7,777 bases of DNA, from positions 1 through 7,777 of IMG/VR virus record IMGVR_UViG_2667527998_000003. One strand, 5' to 3'. The position numbers and the translations under genes were made by a program. The notes beneath the pieces were generated by a model, which saw only the letters and a list, made by a program, of their open reading frames with translations, made no database searches and had not been told where the DNA came from. Origin of the DNA: a virus (Duplodnaviria; Heunggongvirae; Uroviricota; Caudoviricetes). Position 1 is the stretch's first letter, and every line of letters starts with the position of its first letter. Below, piece after piece: positions 1 to 7,777 of this stretch.

Positions 1-44
1 TCCTTCTGATGCCATTCTATTTCAGGAAGGAGTGTCCGTTAAAC

Positions 45-239
45 TCAGGCTACCTCACCCGTCCCGGATACCGAGAACGTTTCGTCCAGCAACTGGAGAG
101 AGTTCGACGGTGGCATCATTGCCCATGCCGGAGGCGCTGGAGGTTTCGGCTGAGGATGGCACAGGGCATTTTCCTTTGACGAGCACCCGACCACCATTAT
201 CAAGCTTGCGCCGAAGAGCATCATTTTCAGCTTTCGCAT
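45..239 (-). CDS. Rz1: Rz1-like o-spanin (outer-membrane lipoprotein), embedded in the +1 frame of Rz and extending about 10 nt past the Rz stop
   Basis: 64-aa translation [21 protein letters not shown]... has a lipoprotein signal with lipobox Cys near residue 19 and a proline-rich mature part ([11 protein letters not shown]), resembling lambda Rz1 as I remember it. ATG at 239..237 is preceded by an AAGGAG Shine-Dalgarno about 8 nt upstream. Confidence 0.85.
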
Positions 240-459
240 CAGCTAACTCCTTCGTGTATTTAGCATCGAGTGCATCAGCATCACGCTGGCGCTGCTGCAT
301 GTCAGTAATGGTTGCGTTCGCCAGCTTCAGTTCTCCGGCGTTTTTGTCGCGCTGCTCTTTGTAGGTAATGGCGTTATCACGGTAATGATTAACAGCCCAT
401 GACAGGCAGACGATGATGCAGATAACCAGAGCGGAGATAATCGCGGTGACTCTGCTCAT
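55..459 (-). CDS. Rz: Rz-like i-spanin (inner-membrane spanin subunit)
   Basis: From ATG 459..457 the protein begins [34 protein letters not shown]..., which matches the lambda Rz N-terminus as I recall it, with an N-terminal TM segment and coiled-coil middle. The start overlaps the endolysin stop (ATGA) and a GGGGGA RBS lies upstream. The track ORF start at 474 is a TTG and less likely. Confidence 0.85.
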
Positions 460-989
460 TGATCTATCCCCCAACAGGCTAATGCGCTTTCCTGGTCACG
501 ACGAATAACCTGTCCATAGCAGTTATTTGAACGTATGCGGCAATCGCGCCCAACATCTTTTATCCACCAGCGAATCGCCTCGCATGCGCCCTTACGATCA
601 CCGGCATTCAGCCGCTTATAAAACGTCGACGGGAAACACTTACCGGGGCCAATGTTATAGGGGCAAAATGACGCTATACCCGCTTTCTGGGGTTCGGTCA
701 GAGGTACTTTAATATTGCGCTCCACCCATGCCAGCGCCTTATCACGTTCAATAGCGTTAACCTGGTCACATTTTTCCTTCGACAGCTTCATTCCCGGTAT
801 GACAGGCTTACCATCCACCATTGTGGCACCACGACAGATGGTCCATATGCCAGAACCATCACGGTATGCCGTTGTGTGATTACCCTCTTTTTCGTTCAGA
901 AACTGGTCAAGTATCTGGGGAGCAGACGCGCCTGCGGCAATCAGCGCCAGAACAGCAGCCGACAGGCCGTATTTGATTTTTGCGCTCAT
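456..989 (-). CDS. R: SAR endolysin, T4-lysozyme-like (GH24) muramidase with N-terminal signal-anchor-release domain
   Basis: 177 aa with a Gly/Ala-rich weakly hydrophobic N-terminus ([18 protein letters not shown]), a catalytic E-x8-D-x5-T triad ([16 protein letters not shown]) and a C-terminal CWG motif, resembling phage-21-type R21/RrrD endolysins. It sits between the holin region and Rz. No obvious Shine-Dalgarno precedes the ATG. Confidence 0.9.
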
Positions 990-1054
990 GGATATTTATC
1001 AGGATTTATCGGCAACAAATAACGAGCCAACTTATATACGCCTTTTAAGATAAG

Positions 1055-1684
1055 TCAGCCCCGGCTGGATCCAGTCATCAGGCTCTTTCTTAAAGGGGGA
1101 GTATTGAAATCACGAAGAAGAGCCTCCCGCACCGCAGCATCCATGTCTGCACCACTGGCAAGTGCTTCAATCTCTGCCGCCACCTGCAAATACCCCATGC
1201 AACGGCCAATGCGTTTCATAACTCTGGTGTTTTCGTCTTTCAGGCATCTGATAGCGAGATTAATAATTTTCAGGCAGTGATGATGCGATGCCCGGACAGG
1301 TTTTCCGTTCTCATAAACGACGAACTCACCCTCTTCACAGGAAACCCTGAAAGGCCGATGGGGTTCCTGGTCTTTATCCGGTGCAGACGCAATAAAATCA
1401 CTTTTATGCTCTTCCTCTCCGGCACTGTTAACCGTAATGACGTACTCAGGCCGCAGGTAAGCCGCCTCTTTTTCTGACAATGCGGCCGGTAAAAACTTTT
1501 CCTGCAAAAACTTCATAAAAGTCTCGTGAGCGACTTTGTGGCAGTAATCGTAAATCGCCGCATAATGCTCATCGCGGCGTTTGTTTTCATCTTCAGAACT
1601 CACCAACGCCGACAATTTTTTATTAAGCTCAGTGATTTCATTTTCCAGGTGATTGAATCGCTGATTCATTTCTTCATGCTTCAT
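1055..1684 (-). CDS. hypothetical 209-aa soluble protein inserted between pinholin and endolysin; function unknown
   Basis: Intact ORF whose ATG (1684..1682) lies 3 nt after the holin stop and is preceded by a GGGGAGAG RBS. The N-terminus is a predicted coiled coil (MKHEEMNQRFNHLENEITELNKKLSAL); there is no signal peptide, no TM segment and no motif I recognise. Confidence 0.6.
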   Translation of the reverse strand: MKHEEMNQRFNHLENEITELNKKLSALVSSEDENKRRDEHYAAIYDYCHKVAHETFMKFLQEKFLPAALSEKEAAYLRPEYVITVNSAGEEEHKSDFIASAPDKDQEPHRPFRVSCEEGEFVVYENGKPVRASHHHCLKIINLAIRCLKDENTRVMKRIGRCMGYLQVAAEIEALASGADMDAAVREALLRDFNTPPLRKSLMTGSSRG

Positions 1685-1687
1685 TAT

Positions 1688-1873
1688 TTACTCTCCCCGT
1701 GCAGCCTTACGCTTGTCTTCTCTTATTTTGAAATACAGATTCGTCAGATAAGTCAGAAGCCCCAGAAGCAGACTTCCCAGCACACCAATCGCAGCCCACT
1801 GTGATGGCCTGACCTGATCCAACCACTGCAAAAACCAGTAGCCGGCACTGCCGGCGGAGGTGCCGTAGGCAAT
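1688..1873 (-). CDS. S: class II pinholin, phage-21 S21-like, 5'-truncated by the N-run (start codon not present)
   Basis: My own translation of the minus strand gives [61 protein letters not shown] followed by TAA at 1690..1688, near-identical to the S21 pinholin sequence as I remember it. About 7-10 N-terminal codons are lost in the N-run at 1874-1883. It is absent from the ORF track because it has no start codon. Confidence 0.8.
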
Positions 1874-1883: not shown

Positions 1884-1945
1884 CCGCAAATAACGGATGG
1901 CGTAGTTTTACACTGAGAAATGAAAGGGATTTGAAAAGAAAAAAC

Positions 1946-2152
1946 CGCAAAAGCGGGCGAAACGATATATACAATAAGGAAAGCACTCTATCCAACAAAC
2001 CACTCACAGTTAATCGGAATAAAAGCAGAGTGCTTATGAATGATCGCCTGCCCGAAGGTTAGTATTTCTGCACAGCAATTTTGCAAAAAAAAGCGATCAT
2101 TCATAACTTAAACGTCTTTCAGTCACTCCGGGATTTCCCATCATCGCAGACT
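1946..2152. repeat. copy 1 of a ~207-bp non-coding direct repeat unit with internal inverted repeats
   Basis: 1946-2152 aligns without gaps to 2164-2370 with 5 mismatches. It contains 14-bp inverted-repeat arms TTATGAATGATCGC (2034-2047) and GCGATCATTCATAA (2093-2106) around a 45-nt loop, plus an outer 7-bp inverted repeat GCACTCT/AGAGTGC. No credible ORF. Confidence 0.8.
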
Positions 2153-2162: not shown

Positions 2163-2163
2163 A

Positions 2164-2370
2164 CGCAAAAGCGGGCGAAACGATATATACAGTAAGGAAA
2201 GCACTCTATCCAACAAACCACCCACAGTTAATCGGAATAAAAGCAGAGTGCTTATGAATGATCGCACGCCCGAAGGTTAGTATTTCTGCACAGCAATTTT
2301 GCAAAAAAAGGCGATCATTCATAACTTAAACGTCTTTCAGTCACTCCGGGATTTCCCATCATCGCAGACT
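2164..2370. repeat. copy 2 of the ~207-bp non-coding direct repeat unit
   Basis: Gapless alignment to 1946-2152 at about 97.6% identity; same inverted-repeat arms at 2252-2265 and 2311-2324; ends 13 nt before the 3' end of the Gly tRNA gene. Confidence 0.8.
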
Positions 2371-2383
2371 GAAAGACTCTGAC

Positions 2384-2458
<75 letters not shown>

Positions 2459-2461
2459 ATA

Positions 2462-2537
<76 letters not shown>

Positions 2538-2539
2538 AC

Positions 2540-2616
2540 TGGACCGCCACCGGGGACTCGAACCTCGCACACTCAACTTAAAGGGTTGACGCTCTTTCCT
2601 GATGAGCTAGTGGCGG
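2540..2616 (-). tRNA. atypical tRNA-like gene; anticodon loop reads UUU but with C at position 33 and one T-stem mismatch; possibly a degenerate or variant phage tRNA
   Basis: Reverse complement CCGCCACTAGCTCATCAGGAAAGAGCGTCAACCCTTTAAGTTGAGTGTGCGAGGTTCGAGTCCCCGGTGGCGGTCCA has a perfect 7-bp acceptor stem (CCGCCAC/GTGGCGG), TTCGAGT T-loop, anticodon stem TCAAC/GTTGA, loop CCTTTAA and encoded CCA. The D-loop is non-canonical and the T-stem has an A-C mismatch. Confidence 0.5.
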
Positions 2617-2617
2617 T

Positions 2618-2693
2618 TGGTGGCCCTTGCTGGATTTGAACCAGCGACCTGGCGATTATGAGTCGCTCGCTCTCACCACTGAGCTAAAGGGCC
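2618..2693 (-). tRNA. tRNA with CAU anticodon, most similar to tRNA-Ile2 (lysidine type, ileX/ileZ-like); elongator Met not excluded
   Basis: Reverse complement GGCCCTTTAGCTCAGTGGTGAGAGCGAGCGACTCATAATCGCCAGGTCGCTGGTTCAAATCCAGCAAGGGCCACCA has perfect acceptor and T stems and anticodon loop CTCATAA. It is close to the E. coli ileX sequence as I remember it. Phage ileZ genes occupy this position downstream of Q. Confidence 0.8.
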
Positions 2694-2702
2694 GGGCGCA
2701 GG

Positions 2703-2731
2703 ATAATAACGTTACGAAATCAATGTTGCAA
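2703..2731 (-). promoter_or_regulatory. sigma70-type promoter for the tRNA cluster
   Basis: On the minus strand: -35 TTGCAA (2731..2726), 17-bp spacer, -10 TATTAT (2708..2703), then GC-rich discriminator CCTGCGCCC running into the tRNA 5' end at 2693, as is typical of stable-RNA promoters. Confidence 0.5.
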
Positions 2732-2795
2732 GCATTCAAAAATCACCCTTATCTCCTCCACCAGCGCATTCACCATGTCTATCCGAGATAAGTGG

Positions 2796-2828
2796 CACAA
2801 AAAACCCGCTTGTGGGCGGGTTTTGTTT
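2796..2828. terminator. intrinsic terminator hairpin with U-tracts on both sides; tR'-like for the minus-strand late leader
   Basis: Stem AAAACCCGC (2801-2809) pairs with GCGGGTTTT (2816-2824) around a 6-nt loop. The minus strand reads GCGGGTTTTTTGTG after the stem and the plus strand reads TTTTGTTTG. It is near-identical in architecture to the hairpin at 4398-4424. Confidence 0.65.
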
Positions 2829-2874
2829 GCTTTTGCCATCACGTACAAAATCGGCAAAGTATCAGATTTGCATG

Positions 2875-2903
2875 AATATATGCCTTTCAATCTACTTTTG
2901 CAA
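2875..2903 (-). promoter_or_regulatory. candidate late promoter (pR'-like) overlapping the 3' end of the 229-aa gene
   Basis: Minus strand: -35 TTGCAA (2903..2898), 17-bp spacer, -10 TATATT (2880..2875), with an A-tract upstream. The predicted start near 2868 gives a 45-65-nt leader ending at the 2801-2824 terminator, the classic pR'-tR' arrangement. A -10-like GATACT in the early transcribed region could be a pause element. Confidence 0.45.
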
Positions 2904-3575
2904 CACTTTGCTTTGAAAATGCCGTCTTTTTTTTGAACGTGTTCTCATTACAAACAATAAAGCCTCACTATCCAGTCGGTGAAAAATGTGTTTCATTGCA
3001 ACCCAGTGACGAGTAAATGTTTTGGACCAGTTTTTAGTTGTCACTCCCGCCAGTAATGCCAGCTCCTGGTATTCATAACCTTCCCCACCAAAAAGTTCTG
3101 CTTTTACTGCCTGCGCCGCCAGCCAGATTAATTTTTTCAGGCGTTCCTGCGTTTTCCCTGCAATTTTTCTGGTACCGGATTGAGCATTAAATTCATTCCA
3201 CGCCCACTGTGTTATCGCGATCTGATATTCCCAACAAATACTCCCGCTGTAACACCACAACAACCAGGCTTTATAGTGCTCTTCAAGAGACAGAACAGCC
3301 CGCCGCCACGATGATGTCGAAAACTCAACCGGACTGACCAGAGGAATTGACGTCCCCTTCGCCAGCGATTGCTTTCCCGGGATTGGTGGATTATCCCGCG
3401 TTATCATTTTTCCAGTCACTTCATCGCGGTACCGGATTTTTTTACGCCTGTAACGCCCTGTATCGAACATGGCATTCTCTTGCCAGGCTTCAAGCTGACC
3501 TTTTGTTGCCCCACTCAAATCAGCGGTGGCGATAATGAGCTGCTCACGCACAAACTGTAAATACTGGTTATTCAT
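2892..3575 (-). CDS. putative late-gene antitermination protein (Q-like), 227-229 aa; assignment mainly positional
   Basis: Intact ORF directly downstream of rusA (start overlaps the RusA stop; ATG at 3575..3573, alternative GTG at 3581) and directly upstream of the promoter, terminator, tRNAs and lysis genes, which is the canonical Q position. I do not recognise the sequence itself with certainty. Confidence 0.45.
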   Translation of the reverse strand: MNNQYLQFVREQLIIATADLSGATKGQLEAWQENAMFDTGRYRRKKIRYRDEVTGKMITRDNPPIPGKQSLAKGTSIPLVSPVEFSTSSWRRAVLSLEEHYKAWLLWCYSGSICWEYQIAITQWAWNEFNAQSGTRKIAGKTQERLKKLIWLAAQAVKAELFGGEGYEYQELALLAGVTTKNWSKTFTRHWVAMKHIFHRLDSEALLFVMRTRSKKRRHFQSKVLQK

Positions 3576-3937
3576 GCGCACCCCAGTTCTGTGATTTTTA
3601 TCCCCAGCCGCCCACCAGGAACGAGCTGACCGCGCACAATATTGATTTCATCAAACTGCTCGTCGTCTATAAGTAGTCCAGCATGCGTCAGCGCATCCAG
3701 CGGTGCCTTCAGGATATTGTCCAGGTCACGACGGCGCTTATCCGGTGGCTCTGCAATAATCTTTATCGCCAGCCTTCCGGACAGGTTTAATTTCAGTCGC
3801 TGCTGGCGAACAATTAGCGCCACATCACGGCGATAACGCTCACCGGCTTTTGATACAAAATATGTGCTGCCACGACGTCGCCAGTAGGTGTTCACCGTTG
3901 GCGGGTAAGGCAAAACAAATTCTATGCGTTCGGTCAT
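3572..3937 (-). CDS. rusA: RusA-family Holliday junction resolvase
   Basis: 121 aa MTERIEFVLPYPPTVNTYWRRRG...PPDKRRRDLDNILKAPLDALTHAGLLIDDEQ... aligns by eye with E. coli RusA (conserved DRRRRDLDN and DALT.AG..DD.Q blocks). Typical nin-region location. Confidence 0.85.
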   Translation of the reverse strand: MTERIEFVLPYPPTVNTYWRRRGSTYFVSKAGERYRRDVALIVRQQRLKLNLSGRLAIKIIAEPPDKRRRDLDNILKAPLDALTHAGLLIDDEQFDEINIVRGQLVPGGRLGIKITELGCA

Positions 3938-4207
3938 TTATGCTTTCCACTTCAGAACACCCGAATTTCTCGCGTGCATTAAAAAACGAATCAGCAACAA
4001 CAACTGACTACCGTGTTTTTCTTCAAAATCTTTTACCCCGGCGTGTAGTTCGTTATGGCATTTACGACACAGCGGAATAACAAACAAATCGTCAGCCTTT
4101 GTTCCCATCCCTCCCAGTCCATGACCAATGATGTGGTGCGGATCATCTGCCTGATTGCCACACGTCATGCATTTCTGCGTTTTTACCCAGCGCGTGTATA
4201 CAGGCAT
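3938..4207 (-). CDS. YbcO-like (DUF1364) zinc-binding protein with HNH-type motif arrangement, putative nuclease
   Basis: From MPVYTRW the 89-aa protein carries CMTC...DPHH...GTK...LCRKCHNELH (two CxxC pairs, HH dyad, CH-N-x2-H). Its stop abuts the rusA ATG. The true start is uncertain: the frame stays open upstream to the N-run, and a GTG about 24 codons upstream with an AGGAAG RBS is an alternative. Confidence 0.6.
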   Translation of the reverse strand: MPVYTRWVKTQKCMTCGNQADDPHHIIGHGLGGMGTKADDLFVIPLCRKCHNELHAGVKDFEEKHGSQLLLLIRFLMHARNSGVLKWKA

Positions 4208-4358
4208 CTCTTCCCGTTGTGGTTTCTGGCGCTGGAGATACTGAGCCGGAGATTCCGGATCAACGGCAATGCTGACCACCGTCTCTTCCTGTGGTGGATT
4301 CTGTTGCTGGTGGGCGTGAGGCAGCGGCGCAAGATTTTTTGTGCGCTGCTTCAGTATG

Positions 4359-4368
4359 NNNNNNNNNN
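4359..4368. other. run of 10 N between the terminator after the Q gene and the nin-type genes
   Basis: Literal n characters. Confidence 0.95.
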
Positions 4369-4397
4369 TGTTTAACGTCCTGTACCGTTTTTCAGGC

Positions 4398-4424
4398 ATA
4401 AAAAACCCGCCCGGAGGCGGGTTT
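4398..4424 (-). terminator. intrinsic terminator (tR'-like) about 90 nt downstream of the QuuD-type Q gene
   Basis: Stem AAACCCGCC (4403-4411) pairs with GGCGGGTTT (4416-4424) around loop CGGA. The minus strand reads GGCGGGTTTTTTATGCC; the plus-strand side lacks a U-tract. Confidence 0.65.
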
Positions 4425-4467
4425 AAGCTGTGTGGCGAAGCAACCACTCTTAACAGAATATCCCGTT

Positions 4468-4496
4468 TTTTACGTACGTAAAATATTTTCTAGAAA
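4468..4496. promoter_or_regulatory. pair of perfect palindromes in the interval between the Q stop and the terminator; candidate protein-binding or late-promoter region
   Basis: TTTTACGTACGTAAAA (4468-4483, 16 bp perfect) and TTTCTAGAAA (4487-4496, 10 bp perfect) lie 3 nt apart. No convincing -35/-10 pair could be assigned by eye. Confidence 0.35.
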
Positions 4497-4510
4497 GTCG
4501 CCCCTTACCA

Positions 4511-4891
4511 TCAGGGATGTTCAATATATTTGTCCATTTCTAACCGGACACCCAACATCATCAACATTCCTTCCACCACCCCCTCGGCTTTTTGTAGCTT
4601 CTTTCCTATATAACCATCTGAGCATCCATGCTTCCGCGCCAGCGTCATGAATGTCATCCCAAACACGTAGTAGTCAACCAGCAAGTCATGTAGATCGTTG
4701 TTGTTCCGGTTAAGGCGGGCCATACACCCACATATAACCATCGCGTCATCGTCACAGCATTGCGGGCGGGATTTTACTTTTGAAGGGATTAATCCCTTAA
4801 AACCGGCAGCAATGGACGACCAGGTCACATCCTCATGATTATTAGCCACCCACGCGCCCCAGCGCTCAAGAACCTGCTGAATATCACGCAT
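4511..4891 (-). CDS. Q: antitermination protein Q, QuuD/phage-21 type (about 126 aa)
   Basis: From ATG 4891..4889 the protein [60 protein letters not shown]... is strongly similar to DLP12 QuuD as I recall it. It sits immediately after ninH with an 8-nt overlap. The track ORF start at 4927 is a TTG inside ninH. Confidence 0.8.
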
Positions 4892-5084
4892 CACTGTCTT
4901 TACCCCTGTCCCATCCACGATGAACAATCAGAACACCATCAACAATGGCGTGCCCTTTGCCCTCTTTATCTTCAGCATATTTTCTTACCGTGGCGCGATT
5001 ACAGTTCAGCATTCGTGAAACTTCGGTCATATTACCTCGTGTCTGGATAAGCAGTTCCGGTATCGTTTGAATTTTGACGCTCAT
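4884..5084 (-). CDS. ninH: NinH-like small DNA-binding protein
   Basis: 66 aa [58 protein letters not shown]... aligns along its length with lambda NinH from memory. ATG at 5084..5082 is preceded by a GGAGAG RBS. Confidence 0.85.
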
Positions 5085-5179
5085 CAAATACTCTCCGGTT
5101 CGGTGATTTTTATCCCGGGCTTTCCACCAGGGACATAATGATCGCGCACAAGCCAGGGCAAAACAAACTCATGGCGCAT
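5084..5179 (-). pseudogene. rusA remnant: 31-codon in-frame fusion of RusA N- and C-terminal segments (internal deletion of roughly 90 codons)
   Basis: My translation of the minus strand is MRHEFVLPWLVRDHYVPGGKPGIKITEPESI followed by TGA. EFVLP matches the N-terminus and VPGGKPGIKITE the C-terminus of the intact RusA at 3572-3937 (RIEFVLPYPP... and ...LVPGGRLGIKITELGCA). The DNA at 5101-5150 is visibly similar to 3590-3640. Start and stop overlap the neighbouring genes. Confidence 0.5.
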
Positions 5180-5436
5180 CAGCGCAGCGCCTCCTGCACC
5201 AGTTTTTCAAACTTTCCGACTCTGGTTTCCAGCTCTGCCACACAGTCCACCAGCTCATCTACTGCTTTCTGTGCGCGATGCTTCGCCTGCATCAGTTCCC
5301 GAAGCGCGGGTACCATATCTTTACGGATAGCATCTTTTGTTATGCCCGTTTTTTCGAGTTGTTCAGCATGACGCAGCATTTCCTGCGCGTGTTTACGCAA
5401 TTGTTCAGGGGTAAAAGTCATTGTCTGGTTGTTCAA
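5179..5436 (-). CDS. hypothetical 80-85-aa helical protein, function unknown
   Basis: ORF begins at the helicase stop (TTG overlapping TGA at 5436; first ATG at 5421) and ends in an overlap with the rusA remnant start. Charged, helix-prone sequence with no motif I recognise. Confidence 0.5.
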   Translation of the reverse strand: MNNQTMTFTPEQLRKHAQEMLRHAEQLEKTGITKDAIRKDMVPALRELMQAKHRAQKAVDELVDCVAELETRVGKFEKLVQEALR

Positions 5437-6824
5437 AAGAAACGCTCCATCTTACTGCTGTCAGTTCGTTTATTACTGTATCTGCGCGGATTGCCGGGCT
5501 TCATGGGAGTGGAAAGCACCCGTGCACTTTCCTGGTCCACAGGCAGAAAATGTCCGTTATAAAAACGCCGGTAAATCGTTCCCAGAGAACCGTTACGTTG
5601 TTTCGTGATATTGATTTCTGCGATGCCCCTGGCCTGCGTATCCGGGTTGTACACTTCATCCCTGTAAAGCATCAGAATGATGTCTGCATCCGCCTCTATT
5701 TCTCCGGAATTTTTCAGGTCTGAGTTCATGGGACGTTTATTGGGTCTGGACTCCACACCGCGGGAGAGCTGGCTCAGCGCAATCAACGGAAAACCACCGG
5801 ATTTTGCCAGGCCTTTAAGCCCCTTTGAGATTTCACCCACGGCAAGGTCATGACGCCCCGTGGTTCGGGTTTTTATCAGCCCGAGATAATCAACCACCAC
5901 CAGCGCCGTTTCCGGATATTTAATCAGGTGGTGTTTCGTTGTTGCGCATATCTCATCAATGGCCAGGTTCGCCTGGTCCACCATCCAGATATTGCGCCCG
6001 GTCATCCGCCCCACCCCTTGTGAGAAACGCGTCCAGTCTTCATCTTCAAAGTGAGCCACAGATTTCAGGCGTGATACTGGCATCCCTCCAGCCGCAGACA
6101 CCATACGTTCACCAATCTGGATGTTCGCCATCTCCATGGTGAACAGAAGCACACCATGCCCCTGCTCAGTCACCTTGTCGATGATGTCCAGCGCAAGTTC
6201 GGTTTTCCCCATCGAAGGACGGGCGGCAATGAATACCAGGTCTCCGGGCTCCATACCGCCTGTTTTTGCGTCCAGTTCATCAATACCGGTCATCAACGTC
6301 CTGGATTTCTCCAGCCCCTGATTCCGGCATTCAACACGCTCAACCACTTCCGGAAGCACATCATCAATATGTACCGGCTGAATGACGCCCTTTCCTGTCG
6401 ACAGTGTGACCATCATGTTCTGCGCATCCTTCAGGGCATCTTCAGCTGCTTCACAGGTATGCGCATCACGTAATTTCTGCAGCGCCTCATTCAGTGTTTT
6501 TTCTGCATCGCGCAGTGCGGCATTGCGCCGCAACGCTGCAACATAGTGCTCCAGTGAAGACTTCACCCAGGTTTTACGCCCGGTATCAGTAATCACCGGG
6601 GCAAGTTCCGGCATCTCATTACACAACAGCACGGGGTCAATCACTCCTGAAACACGGGCCTGTCTGCAGATGCCTGTATAGATATCCTGATACGCTCGTA
6701 CAGAAAAAACGTCCGCTGGCAGTGTGGCCAGAATATCCATCACTTCAGGATCTGCTCCGCGCAGAAAGAACGCGCCGATGACAGCGCCTTCAAGGTCATC
6801 GTTACGCCATACTGGAGTTGTCAT
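5433..6824 (-). CDS. DnaB-family replicative DNA helicase (phage-encoded)
   Basis: 463 aa with Walker A AARPSMGKTELAL, Walker B LVVVDYLGLI and the conserved block ALSQLSRGVESRPNKRPMNSDLKNSGEIEADADIILMLYRDEVY, which parallels E. coli DnaB. The ATG overlaps the upstream gene stop (ATGA). Confidence 0.9.
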   Translation of the reverse strand: MTTPVWRNDDLEGAVIGAFFLRGADPEVMDILATLPADVFSVRAYQDIYTGICRQARVSGVIDPVLLCNEMPELAPVITDTGRKTWVKSSLEHYVAALRRNAALRDAEKTLNEALQKLRDAHTCEAAEDALKDAQNMMVTLSTGKGVIQPVHIDDVLPEVVERVECRNQGLEKSRTLMTGIDELDAKTGGMEPGDLVFIAARPSMGKTELALDIIDKVTEQGHGVLLFTMEMANIQIGERMVSAAGGMPVSRLKSVAHFEDEDWTRFSQGVGRMTGRNIWMVDQANLAIDEICATTKHHLIKYPETALVVVDYLGLIKTRTTGRHDLAVGEISKGLKGLAKSGGFPLIALSQLSRGVESRPNKRPMNSDLKNSGEIEADADIILMLYRDEVYNPDTQARGIAEINITKQRNGSLGTIYRRFYNGHFLPVDQESARVLSTPMKPGNPRRYSNKRTDSSKMERFF

Positions 6825-7699
6825 GCAGCCACACCTCTGATACGAGAACGGTAACTGGGCCAGTTAAACGACAACCAGTTGCGTCCCCCGTCTGTGATCC
6901 TGTCGGCAATTCGGGGACTGATGAACGCCCACAACTCTTCCGGTGAGAGGTTACTGATCAGAATGGTGGGCAAGATACTTTCGTACCTGGCGTTGATAAT
7001 TTCCTGCAAAATAGCCATTTCAGCCGCGCTGCCAAACTGAACGCCAACTTCGTCGATGATCAGCAAATCCATTGACGCATAACGCTCAATAACTTCATCC
7101 GCTGTTTTTTCGCTGTCATTCCGCCAGCAATTTTTCACAGCACGGGTAAGGCGCATCACGTCGGTGATCTCCACACTGGCCAGATAGTTACGGATGATGT
7201 GTTTTGCCATAGCCACAGCCAGATGATTTTTTCCGGTACCACAACTGCCGGTCATAACAAGACTGGTACCGTTCTCCAGCATATCTGGCCAGTTCTCCGC
7301 ATAGCGGCGACAGGCCGCAAGATTTCTGGCTGCGCCAGGATTAACCTCCAGATAATTATCAAACTCGCAGTCCCGAAAACGCAGGGCAATTCCGGCGTTA
7401 TCAGTCAGCTCTTCCGCCTTGATGGACGACAGCTCCATGGTCAAATCGTTGGCCTCAGCGATTAAGCAGTCAGGGCAGCATGAAATTTCTTCTCTGTCCT
7501 CGCCATTACGATCGCTCCACACCAGTATATGCGTGTGATATTCGCCATGTTTTTCGCAATATCCGCGACCTTCACGCATCAGGCAGGAACGATAAGGCCA
7601 TGGCTTTTCGCCCTTCTGAGCAAATGCAATCTCTGCCCGTAACTCATCCATTCGCGCCTGTAGTCTTTTTTGTTGTTCACGCAGGTTAAACGTCATCAT
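6821..7699 (-). CDS. DnaC-like helicase loader (AAA+ ATPase) with an N-terminal Cys/His-rich extension
   Basis: Walker A GSCGTGKNHLAVA (the GTGKNHLA signature of DnaC), Walker B DLLIIDEVG and C-terminal WLSFNWPSYRSRIRG (compare DnaC WVIFNWDSYRSRVTG). The N-terminal part has C-x3-H-x3-H-x-H and CC-x2-C. Start taken as ATG 7699..7697 with a GAGGTGA RBS; the frame also remains open upstream to the window edge. Confidence 0.85.
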   Translation of the reverse strand: MMTFNLREQQKRLQARMDELRAEIAFAQKGEKPWPYRSCLMREGRGYCEKHGEYHTHILVWSDRNGEDREEISCCPDCLIAEANDLTMELSSIKAEELTDNAGIALRFRDCEFDNYLEVNPGAARNLAACRRYAENWPDMLENGTSLVMTGSCGTGKNHLAVAMAKHIIRNYLASVEITDVMRLTRAVKNCWRNDSEKTADEVIERYASMDLLIIDEVGVQFGSAAEMAILQEIINARYESILPTILISNLSPEELWAFISPRIADRITDGGRNWLSFNWPSYRSRIRGVAA

Positions 7700-7777
7700 C
7701 GCTGTCACCTCAGAATGTCTGAAGTGGCACACTGAATTTGGCCACCTGAACAGAGGTGATATGCTCACCTCAGAACA

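Follow-up and report, generated by a model that had tools for sequence, protein, structure and literature searches.

Two unrelated Q antiterminator modules stand side by side in a scaffold that very probably mixes two lambdoid prophages

The window, by which we mean the whole stretch of 7,777 nt that was analysed, contains three runs of exactly 10 N (1874-1883, 2153-2162 and 4359-4368), which split it into contigs A (1-1873), B (1884-2152), C (2163-4358) and D (4369-7777). Two prophages of closed genomes match these contigs, one with a Q antiterminator of the Q82 family (P1) and one with a Q antiterminator of the Q21/933W family (P2), and numbers such as L012 denote related loci around either Q. 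The features are as follows.

1..1873, minus strand: contig A, lysis cassette of P2, 1873/1873 identical to L012, L013, L014, L017 and L019
about 55-459, minus strand: Rz-like lysis protein (contig A)
456-989, minus strand: lysozyme (contig A; Pfam)
1055-1684, minus strand: 209-aa ORF (contig A)
1688-1873, minus strand: class II holin, 3' part (contig A)
1874..1883: 10-N spacer from contig A (P2) to contig B (P1 allele)
1884..2152: contig B, tRNA-to-holin intergenic region, P1 allele, 100% identical to L004, L005, L007, L008 and L009
2153..2162: 10-N spacer from contig B to contig C, with an overlap of the two of about 207 nt on the reference
2163..2310: left end of contig C, tRNA-to-holin intergenic region, P2 allele
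2311..2517: exact repeat of 207 nt common to P1 and P2, tRNA-Gly/Thr
2384..2693, minus strand: tRNA array as assembled, Met/Ile2(CAT), Lys(UUU), Thr(UGU), Gly(UCC) (ARAGORN, Rfam)
2799..2824, minus strand: tR' intrinsic terminator of P1, AAAACCCGC CCACAA GCGGGTTTT TT
2858..2903, minus strand: putative PR' of P1, -35 TTGCAA (2903-2898), 17-nt spacer, -10 TATATT (2880-2875)
2892..3575, minus strand: Q antiterminator of the Q82 family, P1 (PF06323), 227 aa from an ATG overlapping the rusA stop
3572..3937, minus strand: RusA Holliday-junction resolvase, P1 (PF05866), gene order the same in closed loci
3938..4358, minus strand: 3' fragment of a DUF968/HNH (YdfU-family) gene, P1 (PF06147), C-terminal 139 aa, cut at the contig end
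4359..4368: 10-N spacer from P1 (left, mid-DUF968) to P2 (right, 30 nt downstream of tR'), very probably a false adjacency
4369..7777, minus strand: contig D, replication and nin region of P2, 3409/3409 identical to L012 and L013 (genes by Pfam)
4398..4424, minus strand: tR' intrinsic terminator of P2, AAACCCGCC TCCG GGCGGG TTTTTT, aligned with the terminator annotated in 933W
4455..4482, minus strand: putative PR' of P2, -35 TTTACG (4482-4477), 16-nt spacer, -10 TATTCT (4460-4455)
4511..4891, minus strand: Q antiterminator of the Q21/933W (QuuD-type) family, 126 aa, P2 (PF06530)
4884-5087, minus strand: NinH (contig D), followed by Q, PR' and tR'
5179-5436, minus strand: 85-aa ORF (contig D)
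5433-6824, minus strand: DnaB-like helicase (contig D)
6821-7699/7768, minus strand: DnaC-like ATPase (contig D)

The protein at 4511-4891, which the initial annotation had read as a QuuD-type Q followed by palindromes and a terminator, matched the Pfam family PF06530 (Phage_antitermQ) over the full length of the profile (positions 1-118/118, E 4e-54, 182 bits against a cutoff of 26), and the PDB sequence search matched it to the solved Q21 protein (6P18/6JNX, E 3.9e-8). The Q of phage 933W is 85% identical to it. The exact protein occurs in 8 closed loci, where it adjoins NinH and lies upstream of the tRNAs, holin, 209-aa ORF and lysozyme, and its gene has the position of a Q21-family antiterminator, directly upstream of a putative promoter, a putative qut, a terminator and then the late genes; in the closed genomes tRNAs, holin and lysozyme come after the Q21-type Q, PR' and tR'. 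The putative PR' of P2 scored below threshold in a generic promoter scan and aligned base for base with the annotated pR' (TTTACG-16-TATCAT) and qut of 933W (NC_000924.1), with 4441-4434 as the stretch aligned to the annotated qut site; by this homology, 4455-4482 would be the late promoter PR' of P2. A perfect palindrome of 16 nt, TTTTACGTACGTAAAA, overlaps this promoter at 4483-4468. The terminator reads AAACCCGCC-TCCG-GGCGGGTTTTTT on the coding (minus) strand and is an intrinsic terminator with a 9-bp stem and U6 (4424-4398, dG -18.5 kcal/mol, z -3.5 vs shuffled sequences). Several different terminators were found behind relatives of the Q21-type PR'.

The second gene, at 2892-3575, also has a GTG start at 3581, which gives a 229-aa version (2892-3581), and its product was placed in PF06323 (Phage_antiter_Q) with E 4e-91, 305 bits against a cutoff of 25 and profile positions 1-214/220; moreover, it is 74% identical over residues 2-229 to the Q of phage 82 (X92588.1). 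The PDB sequence search with this protein returned no match. Eight closed loci hold the exact protein in the order DUF968-RusA-Q-tRNAs-holin. Its promoter-like sequence, TTGCAA-17-TATATT at 2903-2875, scored 9/12 in the promoter scan, and a -10-like GATACT (2863-2858) lies about 6-11 nt past the likely start, in the initial transcribed region, as a candidate sigma-dependent pause element. This PR' block is kept in 90 relatives, including PhiR47_2 (Q 72% identical), and the terminator varies among them. The terminator at 2824-2799 is again intrinsic, with a 9-bp stem and U6 (dG -16.8 kcal/mol, z -3.8 vs shuffled sequences), and it is bidirectional, as the terminator scan also found it on the plus strand. 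The initial annotation had proposed that the 229-aa protein is a second Q, unrelated to the first, with its own promoter and with a terminator at 2801-2824, and these points were borne out, with the promoter as a promoter-like sequence; the families of the two proteins, PF06530 and PF06323, lack obvious similarity in sequence according to PMC9388147.

Upstream of the Q82-type gene, 3572-3937 (minus strand) encodes RusA (PF05866), as had been noted before. The label of YbcO-like gene given to 3938-4358 has to be dropped, since this fragment had no YbcO/DUF1364 match in Pfam and matched only DUF968 (PF06147, E 4e-47, profile positions 59-169/171) and HNHc_6. RefSeq and other annotators call the full gene, whose protein has 352 aa in closed genomes, DUF968/YdfU. 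The 169-aa ORF at 3938-4447 was rejected as an artefact that reads through the N-run. An NCBIfam scan of both Qs, the DUF968 fragment, the 209-aa ORF and the 85-aa ORF gave no matches.

The two Q modules are separated by the N-run at 4359-4368 (exactly 10 N), where a gap had already been noted, and the sequences on its two sides match two different prophages exactly or at >=99.5% identity. The distance between these flanks is 247 kb in NZ_CP065613.1 and 1.34 Mb in LR213455.1, and the latter chromosome carries the exact Q82-type protein at 1.905-1.918 Mb and the exact Q21-type protein at 3.261-3.273 Mb. The two sides lie at 651-653 kb and 900-903 kb in E. coli FDAARGOS_944 (247 kb apart), and at 1.586 Mb and 0.284-0.287 Mb in FDAARGOS_943. 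The gap was spanned in 0 of 5,426 complete E. coli genomes with both a 2.5-kb query and a 721-nt query, the two flanks with 0-30 nt between them had 0 matches in a species-representative genome collection, and none of 182 loci around either Q carried the other Q family as well.

The other contigs tell of the same two prophages. Contig A matches the region downstream of the Q21-type Q in L012, L013, L014, L017 and L019, and contigs D and A are both 100% identical to the closed loci L012 and L013, in which they are 690 nt apart. Contig B is 97.8% identical to the P2 loci (6 mismatches), and together with 2163-2370 it forms a false tandem duplication, in which two alleles of one region were placed one after the other. 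In L001 contig B maps to 8403-8671 and contig C already starts at 8465. The facing ends of contigs A and B both lie inside a 121-nt run identical in P1 and P2, and, with the left end of C included, each of these breaks lies within or bordering on a run that P1 and P2 have in identical form. Along L012 the contigs align in the order A, B, C, D, just as in the scaffold. The three 10-N runs would be the fixed placeholder of a scaffolding program, as general assembly practice suggests. The Q82-type gene lies on a contig of less than 5 kb in 1,533/1,972 blocks of public assemblies, which fits repeat-limited assembly.

No repeat coinciding with the right end of contig C (4358) or the left end of contig D (4369) was found; FDAARGOS_944 has a single copy of the 5' part of DUF968, and a 141-nt query from the left end of D hit 6 places in that genome but consisted mostly of tRNA sequence. 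One speculation is that a repeat peculiar to the strain, or an IS element, broke contig C at 4358. For the contig ends, contig B hints at a de Bruijn bubble with k of about 61, since it extends 61 nt past its first and 60 nt past its last allele-specific base, but this simple model was rejected as a poor fit, because contig A reaches just 20 nt into the 121-nt identical run.

When characterizing contig C, we observed that it changes prophage within itself. Positions 2163-2517 match exactly only the Q21-type prophage loci L012, L013, L016, L017 and L019, and positions 2311-4358 are 100% identical to the closed P1 loci L004, L005, L007 and L008, as is contig B. The segment 2311-2517 is exact in both sets of loci, with 2310-2517 exact in P2 loci only and 2311-2518 exact in P1 loci only, and the full junction of contig C across 2311-2517 was found in none of the loci. 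Judged by these matches, contig C is chimeric, with the P2 allele to the left of 2311-2517, the P1 allele to its right and the switch inside it. The tRNA array is mixed in the same manner: P1-specific bases occur from 2518 upward, in Met/Ile2, in Lys and in the 5' end of Thr, and the sequence up to 2517, with the remainder of Thr and the whole of Gly, belongs to the exact repeat common to P1 and P2. In closed genomes the P2 array is Met/Ile2-Arg(UCU)-Thr-Gly, and P2's own tRNA-Arg and tRNA-Met/Ile2 are absent from the window, where the Rfam scan found nothing beyond the four tRNAs.

The initial annotation had offered two alternatives for the neighbouring Qs, a prophage with two late-control modules or a scaffold that joins two lambdoid prophages at the gap. 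The second is supported by flanks that lie 247 kb-1.34 Mb apart in closed chromosomes and with a gap that none of the 5,426 genomes span, and the first finds no parallel among the 182 related loci; the two Qs are very probably not contiguous on one molecule, as their join is an N-run with flanks 0.25-1.34 Mb apart in closed genomes. The proposed place of the mis-join, 4359-4368, is supported, but it is not the only one, as contig C also switches prophage in 2311-2517; the scaffold picture was incomplete too, since contig B is an orphan allele of the other prophage and all three N-runs are non-collinear joins. On these comparisons we consider that the window is very probably a scaffold mixing two lambdoid prophages and that the side-by-side arrangement of the Qs is an assembly artefact; we infer contiguity in the source strain from other genomes.

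A real adjacency, that is, one hybrid prophage with the Q21-type Q-PR'-tR', a 5'-truncated DUF968, rusA and the Q82-type Q-PR'-tR' in tandem, one of the two modules being a remnant of illegitimate recombination, would agree with the scaffold order itself and with two Q modules that both look intact. If it were true, two unrelated antiterminators with their own promoters could fire the same late operon, as tandem switches upstream of one lysis cassette. We regard both this arrangement and its consequence as very unlikely, because the junction was missing from all 5,426 complete E. coli genomes, from all 182 loci and (with gaps of 0-30 nt) from the species-representative collection, exact matches to two separate prophages account completely for the four contigs, the same scaffold includes a chimeric contig and, formed by B and the left end of C, a demonstrably false tandem duplication, and P2's own tRNA-Arg and tRNA-Met/Ile2 are not in the window. 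Even harder to credit is that the N-runs mask 10 real bases each of contiguous sequence: the equal length of all three runs would suit such masks, but in no reference are the flanks of any of the three collinear with a 10-nt gap, as the first run leaves out about 40 nt, the contigs overlap by about 207 nt at the second and the flanks of the third lie 0.25-1.3 Mb apart.

Contig C could also be genuine, if P1 and P2 had recombined in the 207-nt tRNA-Gly/Thr stretch so that the Q82 module now drives the P2-type holin and lysis genes. The reciprocal product would then be a Q21-type module with P1-type lysis genes, and the chromosome between the two would be inverted or deleted; even so, B and D would have been misplaced in scaffolding, and the Qs would not stand in tandem. 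An uninterrupted contig does run through the 207-nt repeat, both intergenic alleles are in the assembly, as a reciprocal exchange needs, and prophage recombination at common modules is established for Shigella and E. coli O157. Nevertheless, the parental allele combinations are kept in 8/8 closed P1 and 8/8 closed P2 loci shown, the chimeric combination had 0 matches in IMG/VR, where the two parental ones had 5 and 15, and an exact repeat of 207 nt is longer than the usual short-read k-mers, so the assembler's path through it is unreliable. We therefore think this exchange improbable, if somewhat less so than the two readings above.

With regard to the terminators, the initial annotation had remarked that those of the two Qs are nearly the same, and indeed the P1 and P2 cores are identical at 25/30 positions. 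The flanks upstream of the two hairpins are unrelated (z -0.3), whereas those downstream are related (z 3.9, 1/2,000 shuffles), and in L113 and L114 a Q82-type PR' is fused to a P2-type terminator allele. Convergence of G+C-rich hairpins as the sole cause of the likeness was rejected, since the similarity runs past the U-tract (z 3.9) and alleles have been swapped between Q cassettes. The two terminators look homologous, as the upstream edge of a common tR'-tRNA-holin module that is fused to unrelated Q/PR' cassettes; the terminators would then be alike and the promoter and Q-site regions not, because tR' belongs to the common downstream module and not to the Q cassette. The exchange point between prophages is immediately upstream of the terminator hairpin, which is an already-known kind of biology.

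In the mixed scaffold that we favour, four short-read contigs from two lambdoid prophages of one Shigella/E. coli-type genome would have been joined by fixed 10-N spacers. P2 would give contig D (replication, NinH, the Q21/933W-family Q, PR'/qut and tR') and contig A (holin, 209-aa ORF, lysozyme and Rz), and in the real genome the four-tRNA array and the intergenic region alone would lie between D and A. P1 would give DUF968, RusA, the Q82-family Q, PR', tR' and tRNAs (2311-4358) as well as contig B. The tR'-tRNA-holin module is near-identical in the two prophages, and exactly so over stretches of 207 and 121 nt, and because of this near identity the assembler probably broke or crossed over inside these runs. 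The contigs would then have been ordered by where they align on the P2 locus, which would have pulled P1's Q82 module between D and A. From what is known of the two families, each Q would be the single late switch of its own prophage, binding its own site at its own PR' and loading onto RNA polymerase paused just past initiation; the Q-loaded polymerase could then transcribe past tR', through the tRNA genes and on to the lysis genes.

A literal reading of the window gives a prophage whose two late-gene switches are unrelated, and the analysis is useful mainly as a correction. Both Q families are real and well known, their juxtaposition is ordinary and everything here is already known. The mis-join produces false features, namely the 169-aa ORF through the N-run, the tandem intergenic duplication and a tRNA array that mixes two prophages, and spotting it keeps them from being annotated or counted as biology. 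A small point, which is not new biology, is that prophages with unrelated Q families have one tR'-tRNA-holin module in common.

The Q cassette of phage 82 is among the closest known counterparts of that of P1, in which Q follows rusA and precedes a putative sigma-70-type promoter, a -10-like early element and a terminator about 70 nt past the likely start, and the promoter and early transcribed block of P1 are conserved together with the Q gene across relatives. Unlike phage 82, the P1 cassette is in a degraded prophage (int-hok-DUF968-RusA-Q-tRNAs-holin-IS elements) and has four tRNA genes between tR' and holin. Phage 933W and P2 have the order NinH, Q, pR', qut, terminator and tRNA array in common, their Qs are 85% identical over residues 1-125 of the P2 protein (QuuD of DLP12 belongs to the same family, PF06530), and window positions 4482-4398 align base for base with the annotated pR', qut and terminator of 933W. 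However, the 933W Q as annotated has a longer C-terminus than the P2 Q, the palindrome centre is GT/AC in P2 and GA/TC in 933W, and downstream 933W has ileZ-argN-argO and stx2, whereas P2 has Met/Ile2-Arg-Thr-Gly and then holin, without toxin genes. The Q of phage 21 (6P18, 6JNX) is in the Pfam family of the P2 Q and matches it with E 3.9e-8 over residues 8-85, but it is a distant relative, with 162 aa vs 126 aa for the P2 protein. The P2 Q would act by the 'nozzle' mechanism as described for Q21 (PMC9388147, bioRxiv 10.1101/651190). Q21 binds two 8-bp subsites arranged as a direct repeat (bioRxiv 10.1101/651190); at the P2 promoter it is a palindrome that stands out. Finally, in repeat-induced mis-scaffolding of short-read assemblies with several lambdoid prophages, contigs break inside stretches identical between prophages, as they do here, and an orphan allele contig, a crossover in an exact repeat and N spacers of fixed length are all present in the window, which in this respect is nothing unusual.

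Three runs of exactly ten Ns (1874-1883, 2153-2162 and 4359-4368), which we take to be scaffolder placeholders, divide the window into four pieces, and all genes of interest are on the minus strand.

Pieces of the window and their genes
1-1873, piece A: class II holin 3' part, 209-aa ORF without family, lysozyme and Rz-type lysis protein (minus)
1884-2152, piece B
2163-4358, piece C
2384-2693, minus, piece C: four tRNAs
2892-3575/3581, minus, piece C: 227/229-aa Q
3572-3937, minus, piece C: RusA
3938-4358, minus, piece C: last 139 aa of a DUF968/HNH protein
4369-7777, piece D: in transcription order, DnaC/IstB-like ATPase, DnaB-like helicase, 85-aa ORF, NinH and 126-aa Q (minus)
4511-4891, minus, piece D: 126-aa Q

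In the mechanical ORF list, the 169-aa ORF 3938-4447 was rejected as an artefact whose reading passes through the N-run. The Q ORF listed at 4511-4927 (TTG at 4927) is longer than the gene, for which the Pfam match and the RefSeq start indicate ATG 4891, overlapping the ninH stop, and the DnaC-like ORF 6821-7768 (minus) reaches GTG 7768, RefSeq annotating 292 aa. The 209-aa ORF (1055-1684, minus) had no match in Pfam or NCBIfam; it lies between holin and lysozyme, a position kept in 8/8 closed Q21-type prophage loci, and E. coli FDAARGOS_944 has a frameshifted copy.

The 126-aa Q matched PF06530 across the whole profile (E 4e-54), showed a relationship to the solved Q21 protein (E 3.9e-8) and shared 85% identity with Q from Shiga-toxin phage 933W, which confirmed it as a Q antiterminator. 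The 227/229-aa protein, a putative second Q in the initial annotation, matched PF06323 in an HMM search (E 4e-91) and was 74% identical to phage 82 Q. PF06530 is the Q21 family and PF06323 the Q82 family, with no obvious sequence similarity between them (PMC9388147), and the description of two unrelated Q-type antiterminators was therefore correct. The YbcO label on the gene upstream of rusA was wrong, the family being DUF968 (YdfU). In FDAARGOS_944 (NZ_CP065613.1; 9188-9876 of the fetched locus L001) the annotation gives the Q82-type gene a frameshift, but the window and closed Shigella-like chromosomes have it intact. In those chromosomes IS elements have heavily degraded the prophage around it; an intact Q inside a remnant prophage may still work in trans.

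Side-by-side placement of the two Qs was supported by no complete genome. Querying 5,426 complete E. coli genomes with 2.5 kb across the gap (2700-5200) gave matches in 3,303, none with one place covering 80%, and the best matches ended exactly at the N-run; a 721-nt gap-centred query likewise found no single spanning place in complete E. coli genomes. In FDAARGOS_944 the left side mapped to 651.7-653.3 kb (99.7%) and the right to 899.9-903.3 kb (99.6%), in two different annotated prophages, both sides were 1.3 Mb apart in FDAARGOS_943, and both exact Q proteins were 1.34 Mb apart on one chromosome (LR213455.1). No locus had both Q families among 91 Q21-type and 91 Q82-type loci, the latter including 3 kb upstream wherever the contig reached that far. 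The closed chromosomes with the exact Q proteins, found by protein look-up, were of 4.4-4.7 Mb and rich in IS elements, with an ipaH-like (LRR_TTSS + NEL) gene near one of the loci, which suggests a Shigella-like source. Gene order was int-hok-DUF968 (352 aa)-RusA-Q-tRNAs-holin-IS elements in 8 closed Q82-type loci, and DnaC-like, DnaB, 85 aa, NinH, Q, tRNAs, holin, 209 aa and lysozyme in 8 other closed loci of Q21 type.

Exact matching assigned the pieces to two prophages, P1 (Q82-type Q) and P2 (Q21/933W-type Q). Pieces A (1873/1873) and D (3409/3409) were identical to one P2 locus (L012, L013), where only 690 nt separate them, comprising the holin gene start, the intergenic region, tRNA-Gly, -Thr, -Arg(UCU) and -Met/Ile2(CAT), and a 57-nt spacer. 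Piece B and 2311-4358 were identical to P1 (L004, L005, L007, L008), and 2163-2517 was identical to P2 only. The overlap, 2311-2517, is a 207-nt exact stretch common to both prophages that holds tRNA-Gly and most of tRNA-Thr; piece C carries P2 alleles to its left and P1 alleles to its right. An apparent tandem duplication (1910-2152 / 2163-2370) was false, because piece B is the P1 allele of the intergenic region whose P2 allele makes the left end of piece C. Runs identical between P1 and P2 contain or border the ends of A and B and C's left end, and the order A, B, C, D is that of the alignment positions on the P2 locus. Neither contig end at the third gap (4358, 4369) was tied to a demonstrable repeat when one was looked for, and the closest complete E. 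coli genome has only one copy of the DUF968 5' part. In one closed P1 locus (L008) DUF968 is called as two pieces, with the break at 5080-5180, at least 38 nt from the match to window 4358 (L008 5218).

Thus the individual parts are genuine and known already, and their juxtaposition is very probably an assembly artefact: this contig pattern is what one gets when short reads from a genome carrying several similar prophages are assembled and the contigs are then ordered with fixed spacers between them. The initial annotation had offered either a scaffold joining two prophages, which agrees with flanks lying in different prophages, or a prophage with two late-control modules, which 0 of 182 loci with both Qs argues against; a true tandem arrangement in the source strain is extremely improbable. 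Real P1/P2 recombination within the 207-nt repeat would also account for the alleles of piece C, and is unlikely: the junction was absent from 182/182 fetched loci and the allele combination had 0 IMG/VR matches, while the two parental ones had 5 and 15. Even such recombination would leave the two Qs out of tandem. With the artefact as the preferred reading, each Q would be the sole late switch of its own prophage, as family knowledge suggests.

Putative late promoters (PR') and associated elements, from a promoter scan (P1 PR') and alignment to the 933W annotation (P2)
2903-2898, minus: P1 PR' -35, TTGCAA
2880-2875, minus: P1 PR' -10, TATATT
2863-2858, minus: P1 -10-like GATACT, putative pause element
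4482-4477, minus: P2 PR' -35, TTTACG
4460-4455, minus: P2 PR' -10, TATTCT
4441-4434, minus: P2 stretch aligned to the 933W Q-utilisation site (qut)
4424-4398, minus: P2 terminator downstream of PR' (tR')

The most likely mechanism of both modules is the one expected from family knowledge. In P1, transcription would start about 7 nt past TATATT, and sigma-holding RNA polymerase would pause at GATACT (2863-2858). Termination at 2824-2799 in the absence of Q would yield an RNA of about 70 nt, whereas a Q bound nearby and loaded on the polymerase would carry transcription past the terminator into the tRNAs and lysis genes.

By their thermodynamics both terminators are real, 2824-2799 (-16.8 kcal/mol, z -3.8) and 4424-4398 (-18.5 kcal/mol, z -3.5), with six U following each, and their likeness was borne out, the cores agreeing at 25/30 positions. 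Between the two modules, the region from the Q stop to the hairpin (promoter and Q site) was no more alike than shuffles (z -0.3), whereas that from the U-tract to the first tRNA was significantly alike (z 3.9, 1/2,000 shuffles), and P1-P2 identity climbed to 96-100% further downstream, through the tRNAs and intergenic region. In two IMG/VR loci (L113, L114), a Q82-type promoter region is fused, about 100 nt past the end of the Q82-type gene, to the P2-type terminator allele (...AAAACCCGCCTCCGAGCGGGTTTTTTTATGCCCGAAAAGCGGTA), and the downstream sequence is also that accompanying the window's Q21-type Q; these are natural recombinants whose modules meet just upstream of the hairpin. Several unrelated terminators lie downstream of Q21-type promoter regions in relatives, and the PhiR47_2 Q82 relative (72% identical) keeps the promoter block with a different hairpin. 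Therefore, given the downstream likeness, the unrelated upstream regions and the exchanged modules in relatives, the terminators are best read as alleles of one tR' in a shared downstream tRNA-holin module, with the mosaic junction just upstream of the hairpin.

Within this module, the P1 tRNA called as Lys(UUU) (2540-2616, minus) is the allelic counterpart, 93% identical, of P2 tRNA-Arg(UCU) (L012 6659-6735), differing in the middle anticodon base, several stem positions and the base before CCA (T vs G). Its Rfam score was only 44 bits, versus 65-72 for its neighbours, and it may be a prophage tRNA with a shifted anticodon.

A 16-nt perfect palindrome, TTTTACGTACGTAAAA (4468-4483, minus), overlaps the -35 of the putative Q21/933W-type late promoter. 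The aligned place in 933W (L021 1923-1936) and most relatives reads TTTACGATCGTAAA, likewise a perfect palindrome, with two central bases different (TA in the window, AT in 933W); about 60 loci showed no third variant, so the change is one symmetric double change. The palindrome may be a dyad-symmetric protein site and is possibly the Q-binding site, in which case it would be unlike the direct repeat bound by Q21.
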